A DNA stretch of 64,000 nt from Myxococcales bacterium (GTDB lineage Bacteria > Lernaellota > Lernaellaia > Lernaellales > Lernaellaceae). The stretch spans positions 3,032-67,031 of the forward strand of contig JAAYVF010000107.1 in the NCBI GenBank assembly GCA_012517325.1, written 5' to 3'. Position numbers and translations under genes: made by a program. Below the pieces are notes generated by a model. It had not been told where the DNA came from, made no database searches, and saw only the letters and a list, made by a program, of their open reading frames with translations. Below are positions 9,850 to 50,420 of the stretch, piece after piece; position 1 is the first letter of the stretch, and each line of letters starts with the position of its first letter.

Positions 9850-9870
9850 TTTTTCCGGGCGGGCCGGCGA

Positions 9871-10626: not shown

Positions 10627-10650
10627 GGCCCGCGCCGCACGGATCGGAAA

Positions 10651-16318: not shown

Positions 16319-17452
16319 ATGACCAAACCCAAAAAGAAACCGGTGGTGGGCGCGGTGATCCAGGCCCGCCTGGGTTCTTCGCGGCTGCCGGGAAAAGTGC
16401 TGCTGCCGCTGGCCGGCAAGCCGGTCCTGGCGCACGTGGTCGAGCGCTTGCGCCGGTGCCGCCGGCTGGATCGCATCGTCGTGGCGACCAGCACCGCGCC
16501 GGAAGACGCGCGCTTGTTGAAATTGGCCGACGAGCTGGGCGTCGATTCGTTCGCCGGCAGCGAAAACGACGTGCTGGCGCGCTTTCTCGGCGCCGCCGAC
16601 CGCTTCGGCCTGGACATCGTCGTGCGCATCTGCAGCGATTCCCCGCTGCTCGACTGGGTGTTCATCGACGAGATGATCGAGCGCCTCGCGGCGGGCCGCG
16701 CGGATTACTCGATCTGCGACGAGAGTCTGCGCCACGGTTGCGAGGGCTTCGAGACGGTCACGGCGGCCGCCTTGCGCCGGGTCGCCGCGCTCACCGACGA
16801 CGCCGTCAACCACGAGCACGTCACCTGGTACATCCGCCGACATCCGGACGAGTTCCGGATCTGGCATCACCCGGTGCCGCGGGAAATGCGGGGCCCGTAC
16901 CGGATGAGCATGGACGTCGCCGCCGATTACGAATTCATGCGCCGCATCTACGAGGCGCTGTACCGCCCCGGCAACCCCATCGACCTGCGCGCCGCCCTGC
17001 GCTGGCTCAAGCGGCATCCGGAGGTGATGGCCCACAACGCCCACGTTCGGCAAAAACCGGCCGAGGACGCGACCCGGCGGATGTTGTTCATTCTCGGCGG
17101 CGGCATCGCGACCGGCCGGCGCAAAGCGCGCCTCGCCGCCGTGACCGCGCAGTTGGCCGAAAACCACCACGTCGTGCTGACCCTCGCCGCGCCGGCGCCG
17201 CTCGCCGCCCTGGCGGATTTCGGCGCGCGCGGCTACCGGCTGCTGGAACTGCCGGCGAAGTTCCGGCTGACGCGGGCCGTGGTGAGCGAACTGGCGGAGC
17301 GCTGCCGGGCGCGCCTGCTGGTGTACGACGAAGCCCTCCCGGTCGGCGAAAATCTGGTCGCCTGGCTGGCCGGCCAGGGGATCACCGCGCTGCCGCTCGC
17401 GACGCGGATCGACCGGTTGGCGAAACTGGCACGCGCGGCGGCTCAAAAGTGA
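16319..17452 (+). CDS. acylneuraminate/SpsF-type cytidylyltransferase (CMP-sugar synthetase family)
   Basis: The N-terminus VVGAVIQARLGSSRLPGKVLLPLAGKPVLAHVVERL matches the CMP-NeuAc/PseF/SpsF cytidylyltransferase signature. It is transcribed divergently from the formyltransferase gene. Confidence 0.7.
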   Translation: MTKPKKKPVVGAVIQARLGSSRLPGKVLLPLAGKPVLAHVVERLRRCRRLDRIVVATSTAPEDARLLKLADELGVDSFAGSENDVLARFLGAADRFGLDIVVRICSDSPLLDWVFIDEMIERLAAGRADYSICDESLRHGCEGFETVTAAALRRVAALTDDAVNHEHVTWYIRRHPDEFRIWHHPVPREMRGPYRMSMDVAADYEFMRRIYEALYRPGNPIDLRAALRWLKRHPEVMAHNAHVRQKPAEDATRRMLFILGGGIATGRRKARLAAVTAQLAENHHVVLTLAAPAPLAALADFGARGYRLLELPAKFRLTRAVVSELAERCRARLLVYDEALPVGENLVAWLAGQGITALPLATRIDRLAKLARAAAQK

Positions 17453-18201
17453 AATCCGGCGCTGGAATAATAGTGAACGGTCAGCGCCGTCAGTAACGGC
17501 ACCGCCCAGCGGTCGTAGGGTTGCGGCGTGTAGAGTTGGGTGACCGTGGCCACGGCGGTCGCCAGGAGGGCGCCGAAGAAGGACCAGGGCCCGAACCAGA
17601 CGCCGGGTATTTGCGCGAAACCGTAAATCACGGCGAACAGCAGGAGCAGGCTGGCGACGGCCATCCCGGCGATGCCTTCGAAGGTCCGGTTCCGCAACTC
17701 GCGGTCGCGAAACCGCTGGTGGCCCCAATAGCGGCCGACGATCGCCGCCGTCCCCCGCGCCGTCGTCTGGACCAGAACCCCCGAAATCAGAATGAATTGG
17801 TAGCCCGGCCACCAGAACAGCAGTGCCAGGACCAGGGCGGGCCACAGGGTGCCCAGCGGCGGTTCCTCGTTTTCGCCGTCCGCGAGCAGCGGTTTCATCC
17901 AGGGGTGCCGGCGGGCGCGATAATTCACGTACATCAGCAAGAGCGGCGCGAACCACATCGCGGGCCAGAGGGCGATCCAGTAAAAGGCGATGATCACCCA
18001 GCCGCCCGCGACCACCTGCAGGATGCGCCGGGCCAGCCAGGGGGAAATTCGCGACGAACGGCGTAGGAGGCGCGCGCCGGCAAGGGCCGCCAGGCCGTAG
18101 AAAACGCAGAGCATCACGCCGACGGCGTTCCGGGCCGTTCCCGTGGTGGCGAAGAGAATCGCGGTTTTGAGCAAACCGAGCCAACCGGCGTCGGGCGACA
18201 C
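17443..18201 (-). CDS. CTP-transferase-1 family membrane protein (polyprenol/dolichol-kinase-like or CdsA-like)
   Basis: A multi-TM protein with ...GTAAIVGRYWGHQRF... followed by NRTFEGIAGM, which fits the K(T/S)xEG polyprenol-kinase motif. I chose the GTG at 18201 because GGGAGG lies 10 nt upstream; the longer track ORF overlaps the radical SAM gene. Confidence 0.5.
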   Translation of the reverse strand: MSPDAGWLGLLKTAILFATTGTARNAVGVMLCVFYGLAALAGARLLRRSSRISPWLARRILQVVAGGWVIIAFYWIALWPAMWFAPLLLMYVNYRARRHPWMKPLLADGENEEPPLGTLWPALVLALLFWWPGYQFILISGVLVQTTARGTAAIVGRYWGHQRFRDRELRNRTFEGIAGMAVASLLLLFAVIYGFAQIPGVWFGPWSFFGALLATAVATVTQLYTPQPYDRWAVPLLTALTVHYYSSAGFHF

Positions 18202-18248
18202 GAGTCTATTACCTCCCGGCTGCGAATCGATTCTTGGTATACCAGAAA

Positions 18249-19298
18249 TTAAAGAAAATTGCCGTGCGGTTTTTCCGGGTTGGCCAGGTAGGCGAACAGG
18301 TCGTTGTAATGGTCGTAGCGCATGTACGAAGTGTGCCCGACGCAAATCCGTTTGCAGTGGCCGGCCGTGATCTTGCGCAGGATTTGCCGTCGCTCCTTGC
18401 CGTGCCAGAGCTCCGGCAGGCTTTTTTCGTAGATGCTGCCGAAACAATACTGCTTGTTGCCGCGCGTCGAGCAGCAGGCGTACAAGCCGCCGTCCGCGCC
18501 GAGGATCCCCACCAGGTGGTGGCCCAAGCACAGCTCGTAGGGCTTGGCGTGGATGCCCTTCGAGAAATTGTAGATGCGGAAGCCCATCACGGTGAAATTC
18601 TCATCCTCGTATTGCCGCCGGGCGAACAGGTAGTTGGCGTCGATGCTCATGTAGAGTTCGGTGTCGAACATCTCCTCGGTGGCGACGACCCGTTTGAAGG
18701 CGATGTACCGGCAGCCGGCTTCCTTGGCCCGCTTGGCCGCGATGGCCATTTCGTGGAAGGTGGACGGGTGGATGATGTAGATGATGCCGGTGTACAGATC
18801 CTTGGCGACCGCGTTGATCCCTTCCTGGATTTTGGCGAAGGCGTTCGGATTGACCGGCCGGTGGGTCATGCGGTGCGTCTCGGCGCTGCCGGCGTCGAGC
18901 GAAATCCGCAACCACGAACAGGTTTCCAGGATCACGTCGCGAAAATCGATCACCCGCTCGCCGTTGGTGATGATGCCGACGTCCAGGCCGATTTTTTTCG
19001 CGTGGCGCAGCAAATCGGCGATGTACGGATAGACCAGCGGTTCGCCGCCGCCCTTGATCACCAGGCTCCGGACGCCCATCTCCTTGGCGTCGGAGATGAT
19101 CTTTAACGCGACGTCCCGGGGCAGAAAAACGCCGCGATTTTCCTCGCGGTGGTGGTAGTCGATGCACCAGACGCAATTGTGGTTGCACGAATTGGTCGGG
19201 TCCATTTCCAGCGTGACCGGCGGCGGCAGTTCGCCGCGCAGCACCGCCTGGATGCGATCGATGTGATTGATGATCTTGAATTCGGAGAATTCCCGCAC
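18249..19298 (-). CDS. radical SAM protein with SPASM-like C-terminal Cys cluster
   Basis: 349 aa with CNHNCVWC (CxxxCxxC) near the N-terminus and additional C-terminal cysteines (CCSTRGNKQYC...CKRIC). Confidence 0.75.
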   Translation of the reverse strand: MREFSEFKIINHIDRIQAVLRGELPPPVTLEMDPTNSCNHNCVWCIDYHHREENRGVFLPRDVALKIISDAKEMGVRSLVIKGGGEPLVYPYIADLLRHAKKIGLDVGIITNGERVIDFRDVILETCSWLRISLDAGSAETHRMTHRPVNPNAFAKIQEGINAVAKDLYTGIIYIIHPSTFHEMAIAAKRAKEAGCRYIAFKRVVATEEMFDTELYMSIDANYLFARRQYEDENFTVMGFRIYNFSKGIHAKPYELCLGHHLVGILGADGGLYACCSTRGNKQYCFGSIYEKSLPELWHGKERRQILRKITAGHCKRICVGHTSYMRYDHYNDLFAYLANPEKPHGNFL

Positions 19299-23609: not shown

Positions 23610-24055
23610 GGCGGCGATCGTAGCGTCCGGCGAGGGCTTTGAACAGGCCGCGGCCTCGCCCTCCTTCAAGTGTAAGAGCGGCTTAGCAGCCGCGATACAA
23701 ACCCATGCCGTCTTTTCGTGCGCAAGCCGGAATCCACACCGCCGCTCACCAACCCATCACTACCAATGAGCTTTGAAAATTCTCTGATTTACAAGCCTTG
23801 ACTTTGACAACGCATTGTAGTGTTATTTATCCATGTGCTGAGGAATGATCGAATCCTCGGTTGTGAGAAATTCCGACGGTAGTCGAAGGATGGAGTTAAA
23901 TAATGCTCCTGAAACTCCAATTTCTATATACTGTCCCCGAAAATCCGGAAATCCATCGGAAATCCGGAAAGCAAAAAGCGGAGGGAGATAAGTAATGTGT
24001 CCCCGGAATTCGGAATTCCCAATATTTTATTGCCGAAATTGTTATTAATGTTATC

Positions 24056-25366
24056 TTGCTATTTGTAATTCGCGAAGGTCAGGCAAAAGTATTTCTCACT
24101 AAACTTAACCAGACCGGTTCGGTTGCTTGGGAGTATTTTGAAGAGGCGGAATTCAGTTCCGAGGATTTGTTGTTATGTGGTGATGGCCTATATTTCGTTC
24201 GTGAACAAAGTCTATCGCGTCTGACGAAAAATGGCGAATTATCCTGGCAGGACGAATATCCCTATCAATATGGAAACATGCTTTGCGATGAAAATGATCA
24301 GGTTTTGTTGTTGGTCACTACAGCGGGCGCACCTGCGACCGCGATACTTTATCGTTATTCGATCGATGGTGAAAGAGAAACCATCGGCGAATATTATCTT
24401 GGAGAATTTGAGGCGAATCCGGCCATCCTTTATCCACTATCCGAGGCAAATTATTCAATCCATGTCGAAAGTGAATATGAGATGTATGAACAAATATTGA
24501 TAATTAATAAAATAAATGGGGAAGAAACGGGACGAATTGAAATCGAAACATCGTTGGGCGAAATGCTACCTTTTAAAATTGTGCGCTCCATGAATGACGA
24601 TTCGATTATTGTCCTATTACAAGCGGGCTGGGGAAATACCTACCTACAAAGATATAAAACGGACGGAACGCTTCTCTGGGAAGAAAAGCTGGAAAATATT
24701 GCATTTCCGACCTTGAACGTAAGTGAAAACAATGAAATCGTTTTAGTGGCGGCGGAATCAAACGACGAGGAATATTTACAAGGCCTTTATGTTATTAGAA
24801 AAATATTAGTAATTAAAAATGATGAAAACGGAAAAGATATGTCCCAGAATGTAATTATTCCACTTTTTGGTGGCGACCAGTCCGCAATCGGTGAAGCGGA
24901 TTTTATTATATTAGCTGGTGATAAGGTTGCTTTTATTGCTTCTTATTGTGCTGAACCATATTACCAAATATATCGTTCTATTATCTCTCAACGATTCACC
25001 ATGGACGGCAAACAAGAAATGTATGGGATAATGGACACAAAATATTCCTATTTAAGCATGGAAGAAACCTATGTCGACGCCGCGAATAATCAATATGTGT
25101 TGAGCCAAGGGGGACCAACCGGAGGGGAAATCGGTAACGAGGATATTGTCTGCGGTAAGATCAATGAAATCGGCCAGATTCAATGGATATATCATTACGA
25201 CTGTGGCGGTGGTCTGTTGGATCGTCCTTGGGGAATGGAAGTGGACGCTGAAGGCAGCGTCTACCTAGTGGGCGATGTGTGCCATGAGCAACCGGATATT
25301 TTCGACGATGATACAACCGTCGAGACCGACGAAGATAATGGCGACGAACCAGGCTGCGGCTGCTGA
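24056..25366 (+). CDS. AT-rich (foreign-composition) hypothetical protein ending in acidic linker plus GCGC-COOH; start uncertain
   Basis: A 436-aa ORF in a region of roughly 38% GC. The C-terminus is ...DIFDDDTTVETDEDNGDEPGCGC*. The track start is TTG with no SD and no obvious signal peptide, so the N-terminus may be mis-called or the gene degraded. Confidence 0.5.
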   Translation: MLFVIREGQAKVFLTKLNQTGSVAWEYFEEAEFSSEDLLLCGDGLYFVREQSLSRLTKNGELSWQDEYPYQYGNMLCDENDQVLLLVTTAGAPATAILYRYSIDGERETIGEYYLGEFEANPAILYPLSEANYSIHVESEYEMYEQILIINKINGEETGRIEIETSLGEMLPFKIVRSMNDDSIIVLLQAGWGNTYLQRYKTDGTLLWEEKLENIAFPTLNVSENNEIVLVAAESNDEEYLQGLYVIRKILVIKNDENGKDMSQNVIIPLFGGDQSAIGEADFIILAGDKVAFIASYCAEPYYQIYRSIISQRFTMDGKQEMYGIMDTKYSYLSMEETYVDAANNQYVLSQGGPTGGEIGNEDIVCGKINEIGQIQWIYHYDCGGGLLDRPWGMEVDAEGSVYLVGDVCHEQPDIFDDDTTVETDEDNGDEPGCGC

Positions 25367-25707
25367 TTCGTCCGCCTGCCGCCGTTTTCACATTCCACTT
25401 CCGCTCGGCATGGCCATCGATCCTAGCGGATCGAAGACCATGGCACCCCGAAAAGGATCGCACCCTTCGAGACGGACAAGGACCTCCTCAGACGGCGGTG
25501 AAAACCGGACACTTGTCAAATTTACGAAAACCTTTTCTTTTCCATTGGAAAACAAATGTCATTCAGCCTGCGGCAAGATCCACCCGACCGACTGGCGATG
25601 ATGCGTCTACCTATAGCCCCGACTGGCGAGAAGCGAAATTCGTGCTATTAAGGGGCAAACTTCGCGGTCGGCCGCGGCGCGGCCGGTCGCCGGACGAGGG
25701 AGCATCA

Positions 25708-27141
25708 ATGTTCGCCACCTACGATGAACTGCTGAATTACTGCACCACGAACCGCCTGGAAATGATCGACCTGAAGTACATCGATTTGTTCGGCCGCTGG
25801 CAGCACCTCACCATTCCGATCAAGCGCCTGTCGCCGGCGCTGTTCACGGACGGCGAGCCGTTCGACGGGTCGTCGGCGCCCGGTTACAAGAAGGTCGAGT
25901 CGGGCGACATGGTTATCGTGCCGGATATCCGGACGGCCGAGATCGACCCCTTCTGGAACTATCCGACCCTGAGCCTGATCTGCAACATCTGCGAGGCCGA
26001 CACCAAGCAGTTGTTCGGCCGCGATCCGCGCGGCGTGGCCGACCGGGCCGAGCAATACCTGCGCGCGACGGGCATCGCCGATTGCAGCCTGTGGGGGCCG
26101 GAATTCGAGTTTTACATTTTCGATTCGGTCAACGTTCGCGAGGACATCAACACCAGCTTTTACATGATCGATTCGGTCGAGGCCGACTGGAACAGCGGCA
26201 TGGAAGGGCAGAACCTCGGCCACAAAATCCCGCGCAAGGGCGGCTACCACGCGGTGCCGCCGCTCGACGCCATGTTCCAACTGCGCGCCGAAATGTCGAT
26301 GACCCTCGAAAAGATGGGCATCCCGGTGCGCTACCACCACCACGAGGTCGGCGGCCCGGGCCAGTCGGAAATCGAAACGCTGCTCGACACCCTGACCCGC
26401 ATGGGCGACAACGCCATGCGCACCAAGTACATCATCAAGAACATCGCCCAGCGCCACGGCAAGACGGTCACCTTCATGCCCAAGCCGCTGTTCAACGAAG
26501 CCGGCAGCGGCATGCACTTTCACCAGTACCTGGTCGACGCGGCGGGCCGCAACCTGTTCTACGACGAAAAGGGCTACGCGGGACTTTCGGAACTGGCGCG
26601 GCATTACATCGCCGGCCTGCTGCTTCACGGCCGGGCCCTGGTGGCGCTGACCAACGCCAGCACCAACAGCTACAAGCGGCTGGTGCCGGGTTTCGAAGCC
26701 CCGACGAAGCTCTTCTTCGGCCAGGCGAACCGTTCGGCGGCGGTGCGGATTCCCAAGTATGCCGCGAAGCCGGAGGACAAGCGGATCGAGTTTCGGCCGC
26801 CCGACGCGACGGGCAACCTGTATTTCGCGATGGCGGCGCAGCTCATGGCCGGCATCGACGGCATCCGCCGGCGCCTCGATCCGACCGAATTGGGCATGGG
26901 GCCTTACGACGTCAACGTGCGCGACATCCCCGCGGCCGAGCTGGCGAAGATCCAATCGGTGCCCGCGTCCTTGCAGGAAGCCTGCCTGGCCCTCGCGGCC
27001 GATCACGAGTTTTTGCTGGAAGGCGGGGTGTTCAATCGCGGGATCATCGACACGTGGATCGACCATAAGATCAATCACGAATACTACGCCGTGCGGAACC
27101 GCCCGCACCCCTACGAAATCAAGTTGTACTTCGACCTGTAG
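25708..27141 (+). CDS. glnA: glutamine synthetase (type I)
   Basis: 477 aa from the ATG at 25708 (GAGGGAG upstream). Typical GS blocks are present: ...KPLFNEAGSGMHFHQYL..., NSYKRLVPGFEAP, RIEFRPPDA. Confidence 0.9.
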   Translation: MFATYDELLNYCTTNRLEMIDLKYIDLFGRWQHLTIPIKRLSPALFTDGEPFDGSSAPGYKKVESGDMVIVPDIRTAEIDPFWNYPTLSLICNICEADTKQLFGRDPRGVADRAEQYLRATGIADCSLWGPEFEFYIFDSVNVREDINTSFYMIDSVEADWNSGMEGQNLGHKIPRKGGYHAVPPLDAMFQLRAEMSMTLEKMGIPVRYHHHEVGGPGQSEIETLLDTLTRMGDNAMRTKYIIKNIAQRHGKTVTFMPKPLFNEAGSGMHFHQYLVDAAGRNLFYDEKGYAGLSELARHYIAGLLLHGRALVALTNASTNSYKRLVPGFEAPTKLFFGQANRSAAVRIPKYAAKPEDKRIEFRPPDATGNLYFAMAAQLMAGIDGIRRRLDPTELGMGPYDVNVRDIPAAELAKIQSVPASLQEACLALAADHEFLLEGGVFNRGIIDTWIDHKINHEYYAVRNRPHPYEIKLYFDL

Positions 27142-36651: not shown

Positions 36652-38223
36652 CTACTTCGCGACCCCAAACCGCAAATACTGCACCCAGCCGGTAATCGTC
36701 ACGTCCACCGCGCCGTCGGCGGTGTCGCCGCTCGCCAGCGGGTCGCCGTTCTGGTCGTACAGTCCCCAATCGCCGGTCGCGCCGGAAGGCAGGGGCACGC
36801 TGACCGGAAATTCGTGTTCGAGCATCGTCTGGTCGTGCCAGAGGCCGAGTGTCCACGTGCCGTCGTCGGCGGCGAAGGCAAGGGCGTGCAAATCGCCGTC
36901 CCACGCCAGCGCCGCGCCCAGGTCGCCGGCGAAGCGCGACTCGCCCAGCATCTGGTCTGCGCCGACCAGCGCGTTGTAGGCCGGTTTGGCGGCGATGGTG
37001 CCGCCCGGCCACGAATACAAACCGAAGGTGTCCTCGGTCGGCGGCGTCGCGCCGCCTTCGCCGTCCCAGAAGGTGTACCAGTAGAAATATTCGACCTCGG
37101 CCTGCAGGGCGAGCAGCAGGCCGCGCGCCGCGAAGGCGCCCTGCCGTTCCTCGCCGATGAAGTAATCCGGCCAGCCCATCTCGGTGAGGTAGATCGGTTT
37201 GTCGCCGCAGCCGATATCCGCCAGCCGTTCCCGCGCCGCCGCGATCATCCCCGGCATATTGGGGTAGACGAAAAAGCCGAGGTCGAAGGTGAATTCCGGC
37301 CCCGGCTGCTGGAAGAGCGTGTAGGGGTGGATCGCCATCGCGTCGATGAAGTCGCAAAGATCGGGATGCGCCTCGGCGACCTGCGACAGGAAATTCCAGA
37401 CGCCGTTCTGAATCAGGTCCGGGATGTTGTCGAAATCCACGGTGGACAGGCCGCCGAAAAGGACGGTCGCGCTCGGATCGTTTTCATGGATCGCGGTATA
37501 GGCCGCCTTGAGCAAGGTGCCGTAGTGGTCCGGATTGGGCGCCGGCGACCAGAACCGCGTCGTGTTTTCCTCGTTCCAGATTTCGTACACGTCGATGCGA
37601 TCGGCGAAGTGCGCCGCGACCGAGCCGTTGAAATCCGCGTAGATTTCCGGATCGATGTCGTCCGGCGATCCGTTGGGCATGGCCCAGCCGACTCCGTAGG
37701 CCATCATCGCGTCCACCTGGATGCCGGCATCCAGGTTCAGATCGACCATCGTGTCGTAGCCGTCGAAGTACCATTCGTCGTCGTTGGGTTCCAGCGTGCT
37801 CCAATGAAAATCGGTGCGCATCATGCCGACGCCGGCGTTGCCGAGTTGCCCGATTTCGAACTCGCGCAATTCATCGTAGCCGGCGCCGTTGCTCATGTGG
37901 CTGGAAATGGCGAGGATTTCGCCGAGTGTTTTGCCGGACGGAGCAAATCCCGCGTATGGATCGGTCGGCGTGGTGTCGTTGTCGTCGTTATCGTCATTGT
38001 CGTCGTTGTCGTCGTTGTCGTCATTGTCATCGTTGTCGTCATTGTCATCGTTATCGTCGTTGTCGTCGTCGTCGACTGGCGAAGAGTCATCATTATTGTC
38101 ATCGTCGAGCGGCGAGGAATCGTTGTCATCGTCATCGCCGTTGTCGCAAGCGGAGAAACCGAAAAGCGCCGCCAGGCAGAGAAAAAGAAGAACCGCGTGA
38201 GGAATGGAAATCAACCGCTTCAT
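36652..38223 (-). CDS. lipoprotein with poly-Asp/Asn linker and GH5-like TIM-barrel glycoside hydrolase domain
   Basis: It opens MKRLISIPHAVLLFLCLAALFGFSAC|DNGDDDDND..., with a (DDN)n linker, EIWNEEN (NEP-like acid/base) and YLTEMGWP (nucleophile Glu). Confidence 0.6.
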   Translation of the reverse strand: MKRLISIPHAVLLFLCLAALFGFSACDNGDDDDNDSSPLDDDNNDDSSPVDDDDNDDNDDNDDNDDNDDNDDNDDNDDNDDNDTTPTDPYAGFAPSGKTLGEILAISSHMSNGAGYDELREFEIGQLGNAGVGMMRTDFHWSTLEPNDDEWYFDGYDTMVDLNLDAGIQVDAMMAYGVGWAMPNGSPDDIDPEIYADFNGSVAAHFADRIDVYEIWNEENTTRFWSPAPNPDHYGTLLKAAYTAIHENDPSATVLFGGLSTVDFDNIPDLIQNGVWNFLSQVAEAHPDLCDFIDAMAIHPYTLFQQPGPEFTFDLGFFVYPNMPGMIAAARERLADIGCGDKPIYLTEMGWPDYFIGEERQGAFAARGLLLALQAEVEYFYWYTFWDGEGGATPPTEDTFGLYSWPGGTIAAKPAYNALVGADQMLGESRFAGDLGAALAWDGDLHALAFAADDGTWTLGLWHDQTMLEHEFPVSVPLPSGATGDWGLYDQNGDPLASGDTADGAVDVTITGWVQYLRFGVAK

Positions 38224-41587: not shown

Positions 41588-42538
41588 ATGAAAAAACGAA
41601 AACTCGGGACGACCGAGATTTACGTGACCGAAATCGGCTTGGGCACCAATGCCGTCGGCGGTCACAACCTCTACGACAATCTTTCGGAAGAGCGGGGCGT
41701 CGCCCTGGTGCGGCGCGCGGTCGAGCTGGGCGTCAATTTCATCGACACCGCCGATATCTACGGCCTGGGCCGCTCGGAGGAACTGGTCGGCCAGGCGCTG
41801 CAAGGGCGGCGAGGCGAGGTCGTGCTCGCCACCAAGGGCGCCAGCGAATGGGATGCGGCCGGCCGGCGCGTCGGCGTGAACAATCGGCCGGAGTATCTGC
41901 GCCGCGCGCTCGAAGCCAGCTTGCGCCGGCTCGGCACCGATTACGTCGATCTATATTACCTTCACCGCATCGACGGCGCCGTGCCGCTGTGCGACAGCTT
42001 CGGCGAACTGCAAAAGCTCAAGGCGGAGGGTAAAATCCGCGCCGTCGGCCTGTCGAACGTCACCGTGCCGCAGTTGCAGGCGGCGATGTGCGCCGGGACG
42101 ATCGACGCGGTTCAGAACGAATACAGTCTGTTTCAACGCGAAGCCGAGGAAGACGTGCTGCCGTTCTGCGAGGACAATGACATTTCGTTCATTCCTTACG
42201 GCCCGCTGGCCTATGGACTGCTCGCCGGTCGCTACGACCGCGGTTTTCGGTTGACCCCGAACGACTGGCGCCATCGCGTGCCGTTCTTCGACGCGAAAAA
42301 CTTCGGCAAGTTGCTGGACCGGGTCGACGATCTCAAGGAGATCGCCGCGACCCTGCATCATTCGCTGCCGCACCTCGCGATCCGCTGGGCCTTGCGCCAC
42401 CGCATGGTCTCGTCGGTCATCGCCGGCGCGAAAAATCCCGACCAGGTCGACGACAACGCCGCCGCCGTCGACTGGGATCTCACCGACGCCGAAATCGACG
42501 CCGTCGACGAAGTGACGGCCGATCTGCATTATTCGTGA
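41588..42538 (+). CDS. aldo/keto reductase
   Basis: GLGTNAVGG...DTADIYG...LATKG...LYYLHRID... are typical AKR blocks. Confidence 0.8.
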   Translation: MKKRKLGTTEIYVTEIGLGTNAVGGHNLYDNLSEERGVALVRRAVELGVNFIDTADIYGLGRSEELVGQALQGRRGEVVLATKGASEWDAAGRRVGVNNRPEYLRRALEASLRRLGTDYVDLYYLHRIDGAVPLCDSFGELQKLKAEGKIRAVGLSNVTVPQLQAAMCAGTIDAVQNEYSLFQREAEEDVLPFCEDNDISFIPYGPLAYGLLAGRYDRGFRLTPNDWRHRVPFFDAKNFGKLLDRVDDLKEIAATLHHSLPHLAIRWALRHRMVSSVIAGAKNPDQVDDNAAAVDWDLTDAEIDAVDEVTADLHYS

Positions 42539-42841
42539 CCGGTGTTGATTAACGAAAAAGTGATGAGTTTTAGAGTGGTGTATTACCCATCTAATCCAGC
42601 CATTCTGTAGATGATTTTGCAATTTGTGGAACCGCTCGCCTCACGAACAACCTACTGATTAACAGAAAAGTAAAAACGATTTTCGAAATTTTTTTTCCGA
42701 ATTTCGGATGTTGTCTTCCGCTCCCAAAGCCTAAGTACTTGAAATCACAATATCGCGCATTTGGCATGTCCAATGCTTCATGTCTCATTATCGCGCATTA
42801 ATTATTGTGATGACAATAATCGTCAGCGAAAAGGATGGTCA

Positions 42842-44215
42842 ATGAAAATCAATAAGCACCTCCTGGCTAATATCAGGATATTCAAGTGGGCACGCACAAA
42901 GGGCTTTCTTCTGTCATTTCTTGGCATCGTGATCATTGCCGTTTTCTATACATTCGGGACGGCAAAATGGGCTTGGAAAAGTGTATTCATCGGTCGACCG
43001 GCCTTTATCCCGGTGCAAATTTCCAACCAGGTAAACAGGCTGGAATTGAATGCCACGATTGGCGGCATTCCGTTTTTTCTGGCTCGTTCGCCTGCCGCGG
43101 CAGCTTATTGGTGGAAATATCATTCAATCGGCAATGGCAAGGACATTGCGGACTGCGATGTGAACGGCGGTTCGGCACTTGAATTGATCGATACGGAATA
43201 TCCCGATTCGGATAACGCGAATGGCGTTTGCCGGAGACATATTCAAGTTCGTTGTTCGACCGATAAAAACGGGGCTGACCAAACTTTAATTATCGAAAAC
43301 AAAGACATCTCTTTTAGTTATATTCCCAAGGGAGTCAAACCGGAAGACATCTCATCGGCGTCGAATATCCCCGAGGAATGCCAAACGGTTGCGTGGCCTC
43401 AATACCGGAACCTGTTTTTATTGACCAATGTTGAAGCGAAGCCGGATAAACAGGGTTCGATCGTAGTAGTCCCACAAGCAATTTATTGGCGTAAAGTCGC
43501 ATGGTCCAGTTATCAGGAAGAGCCGATTAAGCAGAGCGCCGCCGTCAGTCAGACGACAACAGTCGAAGCGAAACAGTGCGTTCCTCACTTCTTTTTCAAT
43601 GCGACGAATTCTCCCGAGTGCCAATTTGTCCGCGAGATACTGGTCAAACCATCCGTAGTGAATGAAAGAGACCCACAGTATTCCCTAACAGAGAAAGTGA
43701 AAAAGGGTGCCACTTATCTGGTCCCCATCATTTTGTATTGTGTTCTCTGGTTGGATACATTTTTATTTTGCTTTGTTCTTGGCGCCGGATTGATGTATCT
43801 GATTGTCAATAAGAAACCCAACAATCCGACAGTGAACAATGGCGATGCTGAATTGGGGCATGTCAACGAAGAACGAAGGGAATTGCGTCAATTCCTGGAG
43901 TGGCTGGAAGTTATCGGCCCGGCAATCGGTTTTTGGTTGACCGTCGGCTCGTTATTGTTGGCTTTCGAACCGGGGACTTTCGCCGATCAAGACAAAATCG
44001 CTTTTGCCTCGGGAATTTCCATGGCCATGACGGCAACCTTTGCCGGTCTGCTCATGCGCATCCTGGCCTTCACTGGCGATCGTCTGGTGTTACAAATCCT
44101 TTATCTTTACCACGGCGCCGACAAGGAAGGTTTTTTCCCGAAACCGAAAAAATTGGTGATGGAACCCAGTGGTGACACGCCCAAGGCCGGAGAGGAAAAA
44201 GGAACCGGACAATGA
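42842..44215 (+). CDS. ExbB/TolQ/MotA-family-like proton-channel protein with a ~300-aa N-terminal extra-cytoplasmic extension
   Basis: AAGGA lies upstream. The N-terminus is basic with TM1 at ~22-42. A ~300-aa Cys-containing hydrophilic domain follows. Three C-terminal TMs then match the TolQ/ExbB core: the last two, ...IGPAIGFWLTVGSLLLAF...ISMAMTATFAGLLMRILAF, resemble it. The gene lies in a low-GC island. Confidence 0.5.
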   Translation: MKINKHLLANIRIFKWARTKGFLLSFLGIVIIAVFYTFGTAKWAWKSVFIGRPAFIPVQISNQVNRLELNATIGGIPFFLARSPAAAAYWWKYHSIGNGKDIADCDVNGGSALELIDTEYPDSDNANGVCRRHIQVRCSTDKNGADQTLIIENKDISFSYIPKGVKPEDISSASNIPEECQTVAWPQYRNLFLLTNVEAKPDKQGSIVVVPQAIYWRKVAWSSYQEEPIKQSAAVSQTTTVEAKQCVPHFFFNATNSPECQFVREILVKPSVVNERDPQYSLTEKVKKGATYLVPIILYCVLWLDTFLFCFVLGAGLMYLIVNKKPNNPTVNNGDAELGHVNEERRELRQFLEWLEVIGPAIGFWLTVGSLLLAFEPGTFADQDKIAFASGISMAMTATFAGLLMRILAFTGDRLVLQILYLYHGADKEGFFPKPKKLVMEPSGDTPKAGEEKGTGQ

Positions 44216-44715
44216 TGCAAAGGGTTAATTCGCGAGATGATTTGTTTTTATCGGCTCTGGATCTCTACACTCTTTTATCATTGATGTTCATCGGTGTGGC
44301 TTACCTGACGACGTATGGTGGCATGGCGGGAAGGGATCTCGAACTGCCTACCGCAGCCGGCGATTCCACGCAACCGTCGCCGATGGATATGCCGGTTGTG
44401 CGATGGGTGACTACCGGTTTGGAAAATGGCAAATGCACCGTGAAATTCAATCCGCTTGGCAAGTTGGCCGGATTGATCCCAGCCGCGACTATAGAAGTAC
44501 CTTGTCGGCCTGCTGCTTTTCTGGGAGGGGAACGAGGCCCCGATCCGACGCTTGCTTTAGCGGCGCAAAGATGGCGCGAACTCAACGCGGGTAACGACCG
44601 CGTGCCGCGAGTGGCTATCGCTTGTGAACGGGTGGATATCGAATCCTGCGCGCGATTGCAATGGGTATTCGGCGAGGCTGGTTTCTTAACCTTTGCTGCG
44701 GTCGCCGGCAATTAG
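44212..44715 (+). CDS. ExbD/TolR-like protein
   Basis: 167 aa with a single TM (LDLYTLLSLMFIGVAYLTTYGG) followed by a periplasmic domain with ExbD-like spacing (DLELPTAAG...; VPRVAIACERVDIESCARLQWVFGEAGF). The start overlaps the upstream stop as ATGA. Confidence 0.45.
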   Translation: MMQRVNSRDDLFLSALDLYTLLSLMFIGVAYLTTYGGMAGRDLELPTAAGDSTQPSPMDMPVVRWVTTGLENGKCTVKFNPLGKLAGLIPAATIEVPCRPAAFLGGERGPDPTLALAAQRWRELNAGNDRVPRVAIACERVDIESCARLQWVFGEAGFLTFAAVAGN

Positions 44716-44731
44716 TGATGGAGTGTCGATA

Positions 44732-46384
44732 ATGAATGTCCTGACCCAACCGAATCGTTTTCGCGCGCTCTTGCGCCTCTGGCGGCGCGATCCCGCAAAC
44801 CCCGTTGCGCAAAAATTTTTTCGGGAATTCACGGCATTCTGGCAACCGCTAGCCATTAGAGTTCTTACCGGATTTTCGCAGTGTCTCACCGAGCCTATTC
44901 CTCCGCTAAAGCAACCATTGGTCAGCAATGGAGCGATGCATTGGCTGATCGGTTGTGTTTTACGAGAATTGGCGAACCGGACGATTCTGAATAGTGCCTT
45001 CGATCCGGCATCGGAGATGATCCGCGTTCAAAGCAAGATCGTTGAAGAACTGATTGCCAAACTTCACGATGATAATGTTTCGAATGTAAAAATAAAATTG
45101 CGGAATGAGTGTTTGAAACATTATCTTCGTGAAATCGTCAAATATTCGGCCGGGCAAGGGATCCCAGTTTTTAACTGGATATTGCGAGATCCCAAGTTTC
45201 TTAACGAAAAATGCCCCTGGGGTGATTGTCAACGACAAAAAGATTTACCCGGCGATCATTTGCGTCTTGGCCTTGACGATCTGGCAACTCATTTCCGGCA
45301 GGGTTGGCGATGGGCCAAAGAGATTCCCTATGATCCCATAGCCGAGGTGTATTTGCCCAAACGACCGAGCCTGACGATAGCCACGATTCCCATGTTGACC
45401 AATTTACCAGCCAGTAGCGGAGCTGTTGCGATGATTGTTGTGGTTGCAGCGAACCTCATGATTCCTTCTATTCAAGAAGAGATGTATTCCGGCGGGCAAA
45501 GCGGTGCGAACTATTTCGACGCCGAACGACATGAGCAAGTTATACCCTTACCGATCGATCCGGACGGATTGACCATGGCAATTCCGAAAGAATCAGAGAA
45601 TGAGGATGTTTTTATTATGAAAGAAAATGCGGCGGAAAAGGTGGAGCAAGCCGCAAAAAGGTGGTCGGCGGAAAATGCCTCTGGTTCCCATCCTGATTCA
45701 TTGCTCACGCAAGGGCCGAAAGACAACATGTCCAATTCATCTGGAGGGATGCATATGGATTCGCAAAGGCCTTCTTTTGGCAACCCCACCACCGTCGGTG
45801 CCGGTAGCGGAGGCGGCGGTTTGGATGGATCGCCGAACGGGGCGGCCCATGCGGTATCCACGATTGGCGTGGGTGGGGGCGGCGGTGGCAGCCTGAAAAC
45901 CGGCGGCGGTGGTAGTGGAAAGACCACGACCACCATCGGCGCAATGGGCGGAACAGGTGGCGGTATGGGAGGGTCGATTTCTTCCGGCGCTGGGGGAAAC
46001 GGCGGCGGGAAGAAACCGACAACGACGGTTGGCGCGGCGGGAACCGGAACGGGAACGGGTCAGGCCGGTTACTATACCCCGGTGACGACCAACAGGCGGG
46101 AGATCGAAGCGATACCGGGGGTGGCGCGATTGGCGCGAACGATCGCCCACTACCGAAATCAGATCCTCGCCCGGAGTTCCGAAGTGCCGGATAAATGCCA
46201 AGGCTTGGGAGTCAAAATCGAAAATGGCGTGCTGATCGCCAAGGGATACACGGTCAACGCCGGCGGAGATCACGCCACGCTCTCGTTTGGTATGCGGGCG
46301 GGGCAAGATCGTTCCGCGGTTGTCCGTCAGGCTTACAACAACGTTTCCGCCGTGCTCGAAGATTGTTTGAGCAAGTTGAAATGA
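44732..46384 (+). CDS. TonB/TolA-like-architecture protein: cytoplasmic N-domain, central TM, long Gly/Thr/Ser-rich linker, C-terminal globular domain
   Basis: The start is MNVLTQPNRF. A hydrophobic segment AVAMIVVVAANLMIPSI lies at ~aa 245-262. A ~150-aa low-complexity stretch (GGGGSLKTGGGGSGKTTTTIGAMGGTGGG...) is followed by a ~100-aa C-terminal domain. No sequence-level family match. Confidence 0.4.
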   Translation: MNVLTQPNRFRALLRLWRRDPANPVAQKFFREFTAFWQPLAIRVLTGFSQCLTEPIPPLKQPLVSNGAMHWLIGCVLRELANRTILNSAFDPASEMIRVQSKIVEELIAKLHDDNVSNVKIKLRNECLKHYLREIVKYSAGQGIPVFNWILRDPKFLNEKCPWGDCQRQKDLPGDHLRLGLDDLATHFRQGWRWAKEIPYDPIAEVYLPKRPSLTIATIPMLTNLPASSGAVAMIVVVAANLMIPSIQEEMYSGGQSGANYFDAERHEQVIPLPIDPDGLTMAIPKESENEDVFIMKENAAEKVEQAAKRWSAENASGSHPDSLLTQGPKDNMSNSSGGMHMDSQRPSFGNPTTVGAGSGGGGLDGSPNGAAHAVSTIGVGGGGGGSLKTGGGGSGKTTTTIGAMGGTGGGMGGSISSGAGGNGGGKKPTTTVGAAGTGTGTGQAGYYTPVTTNRREIEAIPGVARLARTIAHYRNQILARSSEVPDKCQGLGVKIENGVLIAKGYTVNAGGDHATLSFGMRAGQDRSAVVRQAYNNVSAVLEDCLSKLK

Positions 46385-48174
46385 TTGCAACGAAAGGGGT
46401 GTCGTTCATGGGTGCGCGATTGCCAGCGGCGATTATCCTGATGGTCTCTGTTTTTTTGCTTACCGGCGGAGCGGCGCTTTTACAAGCGCAACCCGCCCCG
46501 GCGGAGCCGCCCTCGCTGGAAAGTCCGCCCCCCGAGGGTGGGGCGACTCCCGCCGATACCCCTACCGGCGGCGAGGAGCGCATCGCTTTTCCGAGCCTGT
46601 TGCCCTCGGACCCGAACGAAGCCATCCGCCGAATCGAGGAAAACTTGCTGACCGATCAGGTGGATCACGCTTTTATCTACCTGACGGCCATTCAGGATTT
46701 TTATCAAAACTCGCAACTCTATGCCGATGGCAAGGACAAGGACGCCTATCTCAGTTTTCTGGCGAGTAATGAGACGCGTTTCACCCTGTTGCTGGCTGAC
46801 GCCTATTATCAGCTTCTCGACAACGGCGGGTTGGTCGGTAATGTAAATCGGTTGCAATTGGCCACCGCGGCGTTCGACGAGGCGATCAATTCCAATTCCG
46901 GAACGATCAAATATTATCTCGGTCGCGTGGACGCGCTGTTTCAGCTCAACGAAACCCGGGATGAAGGTGGGCTGAATGACGACAATCTGGCGCGGCTGGC
47001 CGACGCCTTGATGGCGGAGGCCGACGCCTCTCCCGGCTTTTGTAATTATCAAAACGTCAAGGATGAGAATCTCCAATATCACTTCATCGTTTATAAAATG
47101 TCGGTTACCGCCGGAGAAACGGCGGGCGCCAGCTGTCCCTGCGATGTTTATCAATATGAGTGGCGGCGGATTAGCAGCATCGTCAGCCGCACGGCGATCC
47201 TGGCTTTGCAAACGCGCTCGCCCGAACAATCAATGATTCTGGCGCCATCATTCATCCGCTTAGCCACCTGGGGTCGGACGTTCCATCCGGCAATTGGATT
47301 GATTTTCCCGTTCCCCGGAGCCGACGGCCAACCGGCGGGTTTCCGCTTTGACGAAATCATCGACAACGCCGGTTTCGACGGCGGTAATTTGAAGGCCGCC
47401 ATCGAACTGGCCCTGGCTGGTTACTACCATGACGCTCGCTTGGCTGATCGCTGTCTGGCTTTCGGGCGCCTGGGGTTGCGGGACGTGCGTTCACCGATCC
47501 TACGGGCCAAAGCCGCGTTGAAGATGTCGATGGTGTTCTATGATCCCGTGTGGGGCGATTTTTTCATACCGGGCGAAGAATTGAAATTCCGGCGCGATTT
47601 GAAATCATCGGCATTTTTCGCCGCTTCCCAATGCATCACCTCGCTCGACGGCCAGGAAACCGAGGCCACCGGGACCAAGGATCTGCGGGCGGCCTGCGTC
47701 GACCAACTCGGCTTGATGGGCGCGGCCTTATTGGCCGATTACTCTGACGCGGAAATACCGTCGGCCGATCTGGCTTCGGTGCTGCGCAATCCTGCTTTGA
47801 CAACGCTGAGCGATCAAGACCTTAGCAGTGATTTCCACCTCGAGTTGGCACGGTATTACCGCTTGCGCAAAGACAATGATCAAGCGGCTCTGCATTATCA
47901 ACTGGGAATTCGCCGCATGGCCCAGGATATCGCCTTCGTGATGCGACAAAAATTTCAAACGATTCCGGCCGGAACATCGGCGACTGAAATTGATGTCGCG
48001 TTGGTCGAATGCTGTCAGGGTGAAATCCGCGATTTCAAACGGCAGATCGAACTGGCTAAGACAGTGGTCAAGGATTTTTCTCCCCATTCGACGCTCCGGC
48101 AGCAAATCGAAAATTATTCGCAATTCGCCATGAAACTGGATGCGCCTTTCACCAACGGGGGGCTCGGATTATGA
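46381..48174 (+). CDS. secreted hypothetical protein (signal peptide), part of the Ton/Tol-like module
   Basis: The ATG at 46381 overlaps the upstream TGA as ATGA; an alternative ATG is at 46411. The signal peptide is ...MGARLPAAIILMVSVFLLTGGAALLQA|QPA, followed by a ~560-aa mature protein with no recognised domain. Confidence 0.5.
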   Translation: MIATKGVSFMGARLPAAIILMVSVFLLTGGAALLQAQPAPAEPPSLESPPPEGGATPADTPTGGEERIAFPSLLPSDPNEAIRRIEENLLTDQVDHAFIYLTAIQDFYQNSQLYADGKDKDAYLSFLASNETRFTLLLADAYYQLLDNGGLVGNVNRLQLATAAFDEAINSNSGTIKYYLGRVDALFQLNETRDEGGLNDDNLARLADALMAEADASPGFCNYQNVKDENLQYHFIVYKMSVTAGETAGASCPCDVYQYEWRRISSIVSRTAILALQTRSPEQSMILAPSFIRLATWGRTFHPAIGLIFPFPGADGQPAGFRFDEIIDNAGFDGGNLKAAIELALAGYYHDARLADRCLAFGRLGLRDVRSPILRAKAALKMSMVFYDPVWGDFFIPGEELKFRRDLKSSAFFAASQCITSLDGQETEATGTKDLRAACVDQLGLMGAALLADYSDAEIPSADLASVLRNPALTTLSDQDLSSDFHLELARYYRLRKDNDQAALHYQLGIRRMAQDIAFVMRQKFQTIPAGTSATEIDVALVECCQGEIRDFKRQIELAKTVVKDFSPHSTLRQQIENYSQFAMKLDAPFTNGGLGL

Positions 48175-48983
48175 ACGCCGCGCTGAAATGCCTGCTCCGC
48201 CTGGTGTTATTGTTCTGGCTGACACCCCTGCTCATGGGAATGGGTAGCGATCCTCTTGGCGAACCAGAGGCGACTGCGGCGATAACCGAGCCGCGAGGAG
48301 TTGAAGGAGTCGCCAAGAAACCGGTCGAGGAATGGATCGAGATCAAATCGGCAGGCGAAACGCGATGGGTGAAATTCGTTCCGGGCAATGAAGCGACCCG
48401 TCCCAATCGGGCGACGCGCCGTTTGAATCTGTTATCGGCTCGGCGAATGAATTGGCCGGAAGCCGTGGCGACTCCGACGGTTTCCCCCGCGGCGAGAATG
48501 CGCTACTTCTTCGAGGAAGACTGCCGGGCTTGGCTCGCCTCACTGACCGTGACCGATCCTACGCGCCTGCACGGCTTGTATGTGTTGATCCTCTTCCAGA
48601 CCCAGCGCATCAATGATATGTACGATTCCGTTTATGCCGATTATCGCCGAACCATGATGCCGGTCGGATTGCCGACTCCCGAGGCGGTCTATCCGGCCGA
48701 GACCTTGGCCACGCTGGTCGGCGCGTATCTGATGGCCGCGGATATTTCGGTGCGCGCCGGCTGGAAATTGGATCCGTTGCGCAAACTCGAAAAGAAGATT
48801 GCCGCTAGCGGGCTCAGCGATCCGATGGTATTGCGGCTGCCCTTTGGCGCTTACAATCCGCCTTATGCCGAATTGTTTCAGCCGTTTTCAATGACGATCG
48901 AAAAACGCTTGGATCCTCCGCCAGCGCCGGAAAACAGGACGGCAAAACAAGTTGTGGGAACGACAGACAAGGCGCCTGAATAA
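48171..48983 (+). CDS. secreted hypothetical protein (signal peptide), last gene of the module
   Basis: The start overlaps the upstream stop as ATGA. The signal peptide is MNAALKCLLRLVLLFWLTPLLMGMGS. 270 aa. Confidence 0.5.
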   Translation: MNAALKCLLRLVLLFWLTPLLMGMGSDPLGEPEATAAITEPRGVEGVAKKPVEEWIEIKSAGETRWVKFVPGNEATRPNRATRRLNLLSARRMNWPEAVATPTVSPAARMRYFFEEDCRAWLASLTVTDPTRLHGLYVLILFQTQRINDMYDSVYADYRRTMMPVGLPTPEAVYPAETLATLVGAYLMAADISVRAGWKLDPLRKLEKKIAASGLSDPMVLRLPFGAYNPPYAELFQPFSMTIEKRLDPPPAPENRTAKQVVGTTDKAPE

Positions 48984-49109
48984 TCCGGGATATTTCGGCC
49001 ACAACCGGCATTGATCGCCACGGTTGCGCCTCCATCCGAATCCATTTGAATCCGCACATCCGGGCATGGTAACTTCAATCTCAAGCCGTGACGGGAAGGG
49101 GTTTGTCCG

Positions 49110-50420
49110 ATGCAACCTGGCTACCTAATCGCTTGCGGTTTGTTGATCCTGCTGCTGATCTCCTTCAGCACAGGCTGCGGTACCGAAGGCTCTTCAACCG
49201 ACTCCGGACAATCTCGACCGACTGCCGATGATGACAATGATGATGACAACGACAATGACGACAACGACAACGATAACAACAACGATAACGACAACGACGA
49301 CAACGACAATGACGACAACGATGACAACGACGATACCACGCCCGCGGTTTCCATTCCCATCCTGGGCGTCGAGGTCGAGGACGCCACGAGCTATCGCCTG
49401 ATGAACCGGCTGCTGCCGATGAACACGGGCGATCTGTGGCCCGCCGCCTGGGCCGAGGACGACCGGCTCTATACCGCTTGCGGCGACGGGCTTGGTTTCG
49501 GATTGATTCCCGGCGATTTGGTGGTGTGCGTGGTCGACGGCAAACCGCCGGCGATGGCTGGGCACAACATTCCCGGGGCGCGCAGCGCGGCCGTCGCCGG
49601 CCTCTGGGGCCCGGAAATCCTGAAGCTGAACCGCAAGCCCACGGGGATGACCTGCGTCGACGGCGATTTGTACCTGTTTTCGCAAAACCTGGCCAACCGC
49701 TGGTCGGACGATCCGTTCGGGTATGCCGAAAACGGATCGGTTTCCGTCAGTCACGACCACGGTGCGACCTGGGATTACGATCACACCGCGCCGCTGTTCA
49801 CCGACCGCGTATTCACCACCGGCTTTTTTCTCGATTTCGGTCGCTGCGGCGAGCACGCGATCGACGACTTCGTCTACGTCTACGGCCTCGACGGCAACTG
49901 GCGGTGGTCCGAGACGGTTGCGCCCACCGAGCTCTTCCTCGCCCGCGTCCCGCGCGACCGAATCATGGAGCGATCGGCCTGGGAGTTCTACACCGGCGAG
50001 TCCCAGGGCGAACCGATCTGGTCGGCCGCGATCGCGGACAAGGCGCCGGTGCTGACCGACGAAACGCGCTACAGCGACGACTGGACCGGCGTGGCGCAAG
50101 GGAGCGTCGTCTTTTTACCGGCGTTGAACCGCTACCTGTACAGCACCCGGGCCAAAAACGAATGGATTTTTCACGAGGCGGAAAAGCCGTGGGGCCCCTG
50201 GACGAAAGTGACGGTGCGCGAATGGACCGGCGGCTGGACGGAAGAGTACCACGCCGGTTATCCGGTCACGATTCCCGCCAAGTTTCTGGACGCGGACAGC
50301 CGTGGCGGCTGGCTTTTAAGCAGCCTCTCCTCCAGCACCTTCGACGGCCTCTACTACAACATGAATTTCCGCCGGTTCGAGCTCGAGGTCGCCGCGGAAA
50401 CGAAAACGACGAATCATTAG
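49110..50420 (+). CDS. lipoprotein with poly-Asp/Asn linker and C-terminal domain of unknown function (possibly DUF4185/sialidase-like propeller)
   Basis: GGAAGGGG lies upstream. It opens MQPGYLIACGLLILLLISFSTGC|GTEG, with a ~40-aa (D/N)n linker and then a ~330-aa Trp-rich domain. Confidence 0.55.
   Translation: MQPGYLIACGLLILLLISFSTGCGTEGSSTDSGQSRPTADDDNDDDNDNDDNDNDNNNDNDNDDNDNDDNDDNDDTTPAVSIPILGVEVEDATSYRLMNRLLPMNTGDLWPAAWAEDDRLYTACGDGLGFGLIPGDLVVCVVDGKPPAMAGHNIPGARSAAVAGLWGPEILKLNRKPTGMTCVDGDLYLFSQNLANRWSDDPFGYAENGSVSVSHDHGATWDYDHTAPLFTDRVFTTGFFLDFGRCGEHAIDDFVYVYGLDGNWRWSETVAPTELFLARVPRDRIMERSAWEFYTGESQGEPIWSAAIADKAPVLTDETRYSDDWTGVAQGSVVFLPALNRYLYSTRAKNEWIFHEAEKPWGPWTKVTVREWTGGWTEEYHAGYPVTIPAKFLDADSRGGWLLSSLSSSTFDGLYYNMNFRRFELEVAAETKTTNH

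Follow-up and report, generated by a model that had tools for sequence, protein, structure and literature searches.

A candidate motor subunit with a large periplasmic domain, distantly related to MotA, ExbB and TolQ, encoded in a gene cassette of a Myxococcales bacterium

Can the channel-forming subunit of a proton-driven envelope motor face the periplasm and have almost no cytoplasmic mass? The question is raised by a gene, here called A, located at positions 42842-44215 of the plus strand in a stretch of 64,000 nucleotides from a Myxococcales bacterium (GTDB lineage Bacteria; Lernaellota; Lernaellaia; Lernaellales; Lernaellaceae; NCBI GenBank assembly GCA_012517325.1, contig JAAYVF010000107.1, positions 3,032 to 67,031 of the forward strand). 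This whole stretch is referred to below as the window. Gene A encodes a protein of 457 amino acids (aa), which its open reading frame (ORF), Pfam matches and family alignments indicate to be a MotA/ExbB/TolQ-superfamily subunit with a periplasmic domain, and which is named at NCBI 'MAG: MotA/TolQ/ExbB proton channel family protein [Myxococcales bacterium]'. A preliminary description, based on the letters of the sequence, had proposed an ExbB/TolQ-like protein carrying a Cys-bearing periplasmic domain of ~300 aa. The reading favoured here, with moderate confidence, is that A forms the channel, as the A-type subunit, in a relative of MotAB, ExbBD and TolQR not characterised before, that is, in a proton-driven envelope machine of the 5:2 type in which the A subunit faces the periplasm.

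Layout and topology of the A protein

A is a real gene. No stop interrupts its frame over 42761-44215 (+), and a Shine-Dalgarno-like AAGGA can be read at 42831-42835 (+), spaced 6 nt from the ATG at 42842. The protein begins with a basic tail (residues 1-20, containing six K/R and no D/E) and displays four hydrophobic segments in the hydropathy profile, at residues ~21-41, ~294-325, ~356-376 and ~392-415. The first of these transmembrane (TM) segments, TM1 (42902-42964), is indicated by hydropathy and charge count and coincides with a helix spanning residues 12-39 in the full-length AlphaFold 2 (AF2) model. It is followed by a hydrophilic, beta-rich region (residues ~42-293; 42965-43720), delimited by an alignment of 27 sequences and a domain-only AF2 model, in which six Cys are found at positions 105, 130, 138, 180, 246 and 260. 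TM2 (residues ~294-325; 43721-43816), seen both in the hydropathy profile and as a helix at 278-324 in the full-length model, contains two further Cys, C300 and C310. A cytoplasmic loop of just ~30 aa (residues 326-355) then leads to TM3 and TM4, the MotA/ExbB/TolQ-type core (43862-44086), recognised by the conserved sequence LEWLEV-GPAxGF-LTV...MAMTATFAGLLMRILAF, and the protein ends with a C-terminal tail of ~40 aa. This succession of basic tail, TM1, six-Cys hydrophilic domain, second TM and TM pair is the one previously described, except for the size of the large hydrophilic domain, which amounts to ~250 aa and not ~300.

The alignment of the domain across the 27 family members has a mean column identity of 22%. 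W45 and C246 are invariant, C105, C138 and C260 are conserved in at least 90% of the sequences, and C130 and C180 are private to the protein of the window. Of the six Cys for which periplasmic disulfides had been suggested, only four are thus family-conserved; to judge from the alignment, these probably form two structural disulfides in an oxidising compartment. The domain-only model, built on this alignment, is mostly beta and reaches a predicted local distance difference test (pLDDT) value of 85.7 and a predicted template modelling score (pTM) of 0.84. A Foldseek search with this model returned no match in the PDB or in BFVD, and no Pfam family was matched by the domain, DUF2341 and DUF3450 included. 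The sensory or ligand-binding role considered in the preliminary description thus finds no support in a fold match. As a separate observation, a metagenomic protein of 625 aa (P0078) combines the membrane-proximal half of this periplasmic domain and TM2 with an N-terminal Calx-beta region; its C-terminus is an unrelated cytoplasmic region and the TM3-TM4 channel hairpin is absent, so that the juxtamembrane module of A can exist apart from the motor.

In the characterised structures of MotA, ExbB and TolQ, the loop that precedes the channel hairpin and the C-terminus are cytoplasmic. By homology, therefore, TM2 of A would cross the membrane from outside to inside, residues 42-293 would be periplasmic and the basic tail would lie inside, an arrangement that agrees with the positive-inside rule. 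The conserved Cys in the A domain, as well as those in the periplasmic parts of the products of two partner genes described below, B and D, agree with the same placement. TM1 might be a signal anchor or possibly a cleavable signal peptide (cleavage between GTA and K); whether TM1 is retained or cleaved, the domain is periplasmic.

Two ways of explaining this architecture away have to be considered together, namely that the N-terminal 300 aa are not translated because the true start lies downstream, or that the hydrophilic region is nothing other than the usual cytoplasmic loop of the superfamily. The low GC content of the region is the sole point in favour of such an artefact. Against a downstream start stand the ribosome-binding site in front of the ATG at 42842 and the conservation at the amino-acid level of TM1 and of the domain in the 27 relatives, W45 and C246 being invariant; because of this conservation the N-terminal part is no wrong-start artefact. 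Moreover, the domain is modelled confidently, and a cytoplasmic domain would need the conserved MotA/ExbB hairpin to be inverted with respect to every known member. Both explanations were rejected as extremely improbable, and the start codon and the periplasmic side assigned in the preliminary description were kept.

Relationship to the MotA/ExbB/TolQ superfamily

The assignment of the C-terminal hairpin to the superfamily is carried by several kinds of evidence. From the point of view of family models, Pfam MotA_ExbB (PF01618) matches residues 341-410 of A with E = 7.4e-5 and 22.9 bits. All seven close homologues match the same model when E up to 1 is allowed, 7.4e-5 being the best value, and nine of ten more distant ones do so at E up to 0.1 (1.2e-5 to 0.04). 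Of 14 relatives submitted to Pfam, one with a limit of E up to 1 and 13 with a limit of 0.1 or 0.01, 12 matched MotA_ExbB at 14.1-29.5 bits, the cut-off being 22.9; one of the remaining two had no MotA_ExbB match and the other matched Calx-beta alone. In profile comparisons made by hhalign, a C-terminal profile of 126 A sequences aligned with Escherichia coli MotA at P = 2.8e-4, with TolQ at P = 1.6e-3 and with ExbB at P = 2.7e-3, in all three cases in register with the channel-forming TM hairpin. These values of about 1e-3 are reached solely with the 126-sequence profile; a profile of seven A sequences against the single E. coli ExbB, TolQ and MotA sequences gave nothing significant. Finally, the residues that the alignments superimpose are conserved: the invariant P360 of A falls on ExbB P141 and MotA P173, T367 (T or S in the family) on ExbB T148, and the invariant T399 on ExbB T181. 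A Foldseek search of the PDB with the full-length model (pLDDT 63.6) placed TolQ and ExbB chains at the top, with TM-scores (template modelling) of 0.14-0.39, and ZorA and PomA lower among the weak matches, none of them significant. Taken together, these sequence comparisons suggest a homology of A to MotA, ExbB and TolQ that is weak but consistent at the level of the superfamily. The hairpin is, as had been described, of the MotA/ExbB/TolQ type, and TM2 of A is the topological equivalent of TM1 in ExbB and TolQ.

The ExbB/TolQ-like label stands for the superfamily relationship and falls for orthology. The NCBIfam model exbB2 scores A at 13.1 bits against a cut-off of 135.35, and no NCBIfam assignment above cut-off was obtained (TIGR02805/TIGR02797 equivalogs). 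Since, in addition, PDB sequences searched with the A profile yielded no match and no ExbD or TonB_C partner is detectable, A is to be regarded, on these sequence criteria, as no orthologue of ExbB or TolQ. In fact, the features of a Ton-system ExbB that A lacks are the large cytoplasmic domain between TM1 and TM2, Glu176 in TM3, and the ExbD (PF02472) and TonB partners. With TolQ and ExbB (PF01618), which are the A subunits in the 5:2 motors of the Tol-Pal and Ton systems, A shares the homologous hairpin with its Pro and two Thr (P360, T367, T399), the out-to-in TM that precedes it and the adjacent small partner gene, whose product has one TM with an Asp. It differs from them in a similarity that lies at threshold level, a cytoplasmic part of ~30 aa, an additional N-terminal TM or signal peptide with a folded periplasmic domain of ~250 aa, a Met in the place of Glu176/173, an invariant Arg in TM4, and cassette partners that are not recognisable as ExbD/TolR, TonB/TolA or Pal.

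The presence of extra periplasmic sequence raises the possibility that A is a Serratia-type 'long ExbB', an ordinary Ton-system protein equipped with a signal peptide and extended at its N-terminus. Extensions of this kind are documented; they measure from a few to 150 residues, with an average of ~50, and are Ala/Pro-rich and unstructured (PMC9008036). Like that of A, they stand before the first ExbB-type TM and are preceded by a hydrophobic signal sequence, and a possible signal-peptidase site follows TM1 of A. However, they are short disordered additions to an orthodox ExbB, whereas A bears a structured domain of ~250 aa, beta-rich and confidently modelled, with four conserved Cys, on a divergent core. 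The failure of the equivalog model (13 vs 135 bits), a cytoplasmic loop of ~30 aa instead of ~90, the missing E176 and the lack of any ExbD or TonB partner recognisable by Pfam further argue against this identity, which is considered very improbable.

A precedent for the architecture is offered by a recent phylogenetic and structural survey, according to which non-flagellar A subunits often have condensed cytoplasmic domains and N-terminal appendages, among them 'extraordinarily large periplasmic domains', for example DUF2341 and DUF3450 (Puente-Lelievre et al., mBio 2025, PMC12505986). The GIT A subunits with these domains have in common with A an Exb/Tol-type scaffold in which the cytoplasmic domain is condensed and the N-terminus bears a large periplasmic domain specific to the lineage; they differ from it in that the domain of A has neither a Pfam family nor a solved fold detectable by Foldseek, and in that the clade of A is very divergent. 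Because the survey describes large periplasmic domains on A subunits, their principle is already known, and a fusion of this kind to a proton channel is unusual only in part. In the literature searched, the A family, the A domain and the cassette to which A belongs were not found described.

Partner genes and a proposed mechanism

Four genes on the same strand follow A. Gene B (44212-44715, +) encodes 167 aa with one N-terminal TM and a periplasmic domain with four conserved Cys; gene C (44732-46384, +) encodes ~550 aa comprising a cytoplasmic N-domain, one TM, a low-complexity linker and a small C-terminal domain; gene D (46381-48174, +) encodes 597 aa with a signal peptide; and gene E (48171-48983, +) encodes 270 aa with a hydrophobic N-terminus. 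Stop and start codons overlap as ATGA between A and B, C and D, and D and E, and it is through these overlaps that D and E of the window are translationally coupled to the cassette. The order A-B-C-D is conserved in 10 loci, window included, the nine sister loci being L001 (Sorangium), L002, L006, L008 (Archangium), L009, L011 (Minicystis), L012, L013 and L015 (Nannocystaceae). Pfam gave no match for B, C, D or E in any of these loci, nor could a TonB_C partner be detected by Pfam for the cassette, either in the window or in the sister loci; searches of PDB sequences with the B and D profiles returned nothing meaningful.

B is 35-40% identical across all sister loci. Its single TM has the invariant residues F12, S14, D17, L22 and I27 and the motif DDLFLSALDxYTLLS, in which Asp17, invariant in 10 sequences, is set by hhalign on D32 of MotB. 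The cytoplasmic N-terminal domain of C, of ~200 aa, has invariant F46 and W50 (F..FW), and its linker, Gly-rich in the window, abounds in Pro in the homologues, with a long poly-Pro run in L009. In its architecture C resembles TonB and TolA, the likeness being one of layout only: in both, one TM anchor is followed by a long periplasmic spacer rich in Pro or Gly and by a small domain at the C-terminus, and the gene stands beside an A/B pair, while no TonB_C or TolA domain was detected in C and a cytoplasmic N-domain of ~200 aa precedes its TM. The D proteins of the nine other loci form one secreted family of 380-824 aa, with eight invariant Cys in a five-locus alignment. D of the window holds the place of this Cys-rich family, yet has no detectable homology to it: hhalign of the family against D and E of the window gave nothing significant, at most a short shared motif, and a search of 5.8 billion proteins for homologues of the window D found a 97% identical copy alone. 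Gene E has no counterpart in any sister locus.

From these elements a mechanism can be proposed. A would be inserted with its N-terminus inside, TM1 leading out to the folded domain of ~250 aa, TM2 leading back in, then the short loop and the TM3-TM4 hairpin. By analogy with the solved 5:2 motors, five A subunits would surround two copies of B, whose Asp17 within the membrane would take up protons, and the flow of protons would drive either rotation or conformational cycling. Because A has almost no cytoplasmic mass, the mechanical output would be expected on the periplasmic side, where it may pass through the crown formed by the periplasmic domains of A, through C, or through both. C would act as a TonB-like transducer, with its TM anchor, Pro/Gly-rich rod and C-terminal domain, to which a cytoplasmic N-domain is added, and the partner in the periplasm would be D, which is large, secreted and rich in Cys. 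Conserved Cys, of which A and B have four each and D has eight, speak for the periplasmic location.

Several findings weigh against it. Every homology statistic linking A to known motors is weak: the Pfam score of 22.9 bits equals the gathering cut-off of PF01618 exactly, hhalign assigns a probability of at most 41% to the alignments with E. coli MotA, TolQ and ExbB, the search of PDB sequences was empty, and the best structural match of the full-length model, itself only of moderate quality, has a non-significant E of 0.078. Within the hairpin, Met395 sits at the position of the essential Glu (ExbB E176, TolQ E173), the second Pro of MotA (P222) is absent and an invariant Arg, R406, lies inside TM4. 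As regards B, the likeness to MotB is marginal (P = 0.049), the similarity to ExbD is not significant by hhalign, and Pfam finds no match in the window or the sister loci, ExbD (PF02472), OmpA and MotB_plug included. Furthermore, D and E of the window have no detectable relation to the D family of the other loci, so that the copy in the window may be degenerate or may function in another way. Lastly, the stoichiometry, the ion flow and the topology are inferred.

Two known motors were rejected as identities for the cassette. A flagellar stator of the MotAB/PomAB type, which has a large torque-generating cytoplasmic domain between TM2 and TM3 and whose MotB bears a plug and an OmpA-like peptidoglycan-binding domain, is not compatible with a loop of ~30 aa in A and a B protein of 167 aa without OmpA or MotB_plug match in Pfam. 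The other is Zorya, the anti-phage 5:2 motor ZorAB, for which no PADLOC match and no long cytoplasmic tail of the ZorA type were found. Zorya is nonetheless an instructive comparison, being, like the cassette, an accessory and patchy MotAB-like pair accompanied by two further genes of no known fold and sometimes located among defence genes, and ZorA is among the weak structural matches of A. The differences are that none of the five proteins matches the PADLOC models for ZorA-D (E up to 1), that the tail of A has ~40 aa against the long cytoplasmic one of ZorA, that B has no recognisable peptidoglycan-binding domain, and that the accessory proteins of the cassette are mostly periplasmic and not cytoplasmic nucleases or helicases.

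Distribution, neighbourhoods and possible roles

The family of A is small. A word-indexed search of 5.8 billion proteins recovered seven members, the window A and a Sorangium hypothetical protein among them; a second search of this kind, made with the alignment, gave fewer because its candidates were capped. A profile compared exhaustively with 1.84 billion cluster representatives gave, at E up to 1e-3, 170 relatives, which are profile matches inspected in part for orthodox ExbB, TolQ or MotA members. This is far fewer than mainstream ExbB, TolQ or MotA would give, and the clade of A lies, therefore, far from them. About 30 of the 170 align over their full length. The other ~140 are shorter (~340-360 aa) and align only within TM2-TM4; they keep the layout of TM1, extracytoplasmic domain and three TMs. 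The cassettes of short relatives have the form A'-B'-small TM protein. The relatives with a named source all belong to the Myxococcota (Sorangium, Archangium, Minicystis, Polyangiaceae, Nannocystaceae and metagenome-assembled genomes), to which the family appears to be restricted.

In the window, the GC content falls at ~42.5 kb from 0.60-0.64 to 0.46-0.50, remains low across A and B and into the beginning of C, and recovers only gradually to 0.55-0.60 by 46-49 kb (42400-49000 considered). Since the genome has ~62% GC, the five-gene cassette has the appearance of an island gained by horizontal transfer, and its homologues sit in high-GC myxobacterial genomes. As the genomic neighbourhoods also vary from locus to locus, the cassette can be seen to behave like an accessory module that moves horizontally. 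Elsewhere in the window, a second patch of low GC (24000-26000; 0.47 vs ~0.63 in the flanks), which holds the ORF 24056-25366, may be another acquired segment. Two other ORFs, 36652-38223 (-) and 49110-50420 (+), one on each side of the cassette region, begin like lipoproteins and continue with long linkers made of Asp/Asn repeats (DDNDDNDDN...), and these repeats also create spurious long ORFs on the opposite strand.

Which process such a module would serve can be read in two ways, ranked about equally. According to the first, a serious possibility that we hold with less than even confidence, the cassette would act against phages or in other conflicts by a Zorya-like logic, in which the periplasmic parts (the crown of A subunits, C and D) would sense a perturbation of the envelope during infection and the motor or channel would either use the cytoplasmic domain of C for signalling or depolarise the membrane; such an output is compatible with the motor mechanism. 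The rare and patchy occurrence of the A family, the low-GC island of the window and the fast evolution of C and D agree with this role, as do the neighbours of four sister loci. At L001 these are a SIR2_2+nSTAND1 protein and an IetA-like AAA ATPase (15981-18389 of that locus); at L002, two SIR2 proteins, one of them with Metallophos (6601-11136), and Uma2 nearby; at L009, an EAD1-trypsin-subtilase protein (1890-5207); and at L013, a subtilase gene (4844-6355) that ends 4 nt before A. No single one of these defence-like partners is conserved among loci, and the neighbourhoods of the window, L006, L011 and L015 are housekeeping, metabolic or regulatory. Adjacency to STAND, SIR2 or kinase genes is weak evidence, since myxobacteria have many of them in their genomes. 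The PADLOC models, moreover, match none of the five window proteins, and Pfam recognises no nuclease, NADase or protease effector domain inside the cassette.

A short relative of the cassette offers a further context. In L014 (7001-8915), genes for A' (353 aa), B' (156 aa) and a protein of 129 aa adjoin relaxase and NikA-like mobilisation genes together with AAA_15/AAA_21, DUF4145 and bPH_2 genes, a context that is that of a mobilisable element with defence-type cargo; its position by the relaxase, AAA_15/21 and DUF4145 genes counts in favour of the defence role. Independently of this, L001 (Sorangium; 2202-3020, 8469-9548) and L006 (a metagenomic contig; 8207-8902, 14647-15738) contain, close to the cassette, genes for a GerE/LuxR-type regulator of ~360 aa and a weakly Haem_oxygenas_2-like gene, neither of which was found in the window; they may be lineage-specific regulators.

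According to the second reading, possible if rather doubtful in our estimation, the cassette energises a Ton/Tol-like envelope process, be it outer-membrane transport, envelope maintenance, gliding or secretion, with C as a force transducer of the TonB/TolA type and D as a target in the periplasm or close to the outer membrane. TolQR-like motors (Agl) power gliding in myxobacteria, a precedent for motors of this kind in the group. The layout of C, with TM, Pro/Gly-rich rod and C-terminal domain as in TonB and TolA, the rank of TolQ and ExbB as the top, albeit not significant, structural matches of A, and the largely periplasmic, Cys-rich character of all components are in line with such a function. 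By contrast, no TonB_C, TolA, TonB-dependent receptor or OmpA/Pal-type domain is recognised by Pfam in or beside the cassette, D looks helical and not like a beta-barrel as far as its sequence allows to judge, the family occurs too sparsely to serve a core function of the envelope, and the cytoplasmic domain of ~200 aa in C has no counterpart in TonB or TolA.

To our knowledge, the functional classes of 5:2 ion-driven motor are few, namely flagellar, Ton, Tol, gliding/T9SS and Zorya, and we know of none in which the A subunit does not work through its cytoplasmic domain or through the TM helix of its partner. With respect to all characterised classes, the cassette described here would be inverted, with a disulfide-stabilised, beta-rich periplasmic crown on the ring of A subunits and a TonB-like partner with a cytoplasmic signalling domain, employed in envelope surveillance, in defence or in another, previously unknown envelope function of myxobacteria; this more far-reaching proposal is put forward only tentatively. 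The family is small and well delimited, and two of the myxobacteria that have it, Sorangium sp. So ce448 and Archangium violaceum Cb vi76, can be cultivated; for these reasons it is experimentally tractable. A family whose A subunit has next to no cytoplasmic mass and bears a large folded periplasmic domain, accompanied by an Asp-bearing B, a TonB-like protein and a secreted Cys-rich partner, would widen the ways in which proton flow is coupled to work in the envelope. If its role is in defence, it would be the second case, independent of the first, of a MotAB-type motor recruited to immunity.

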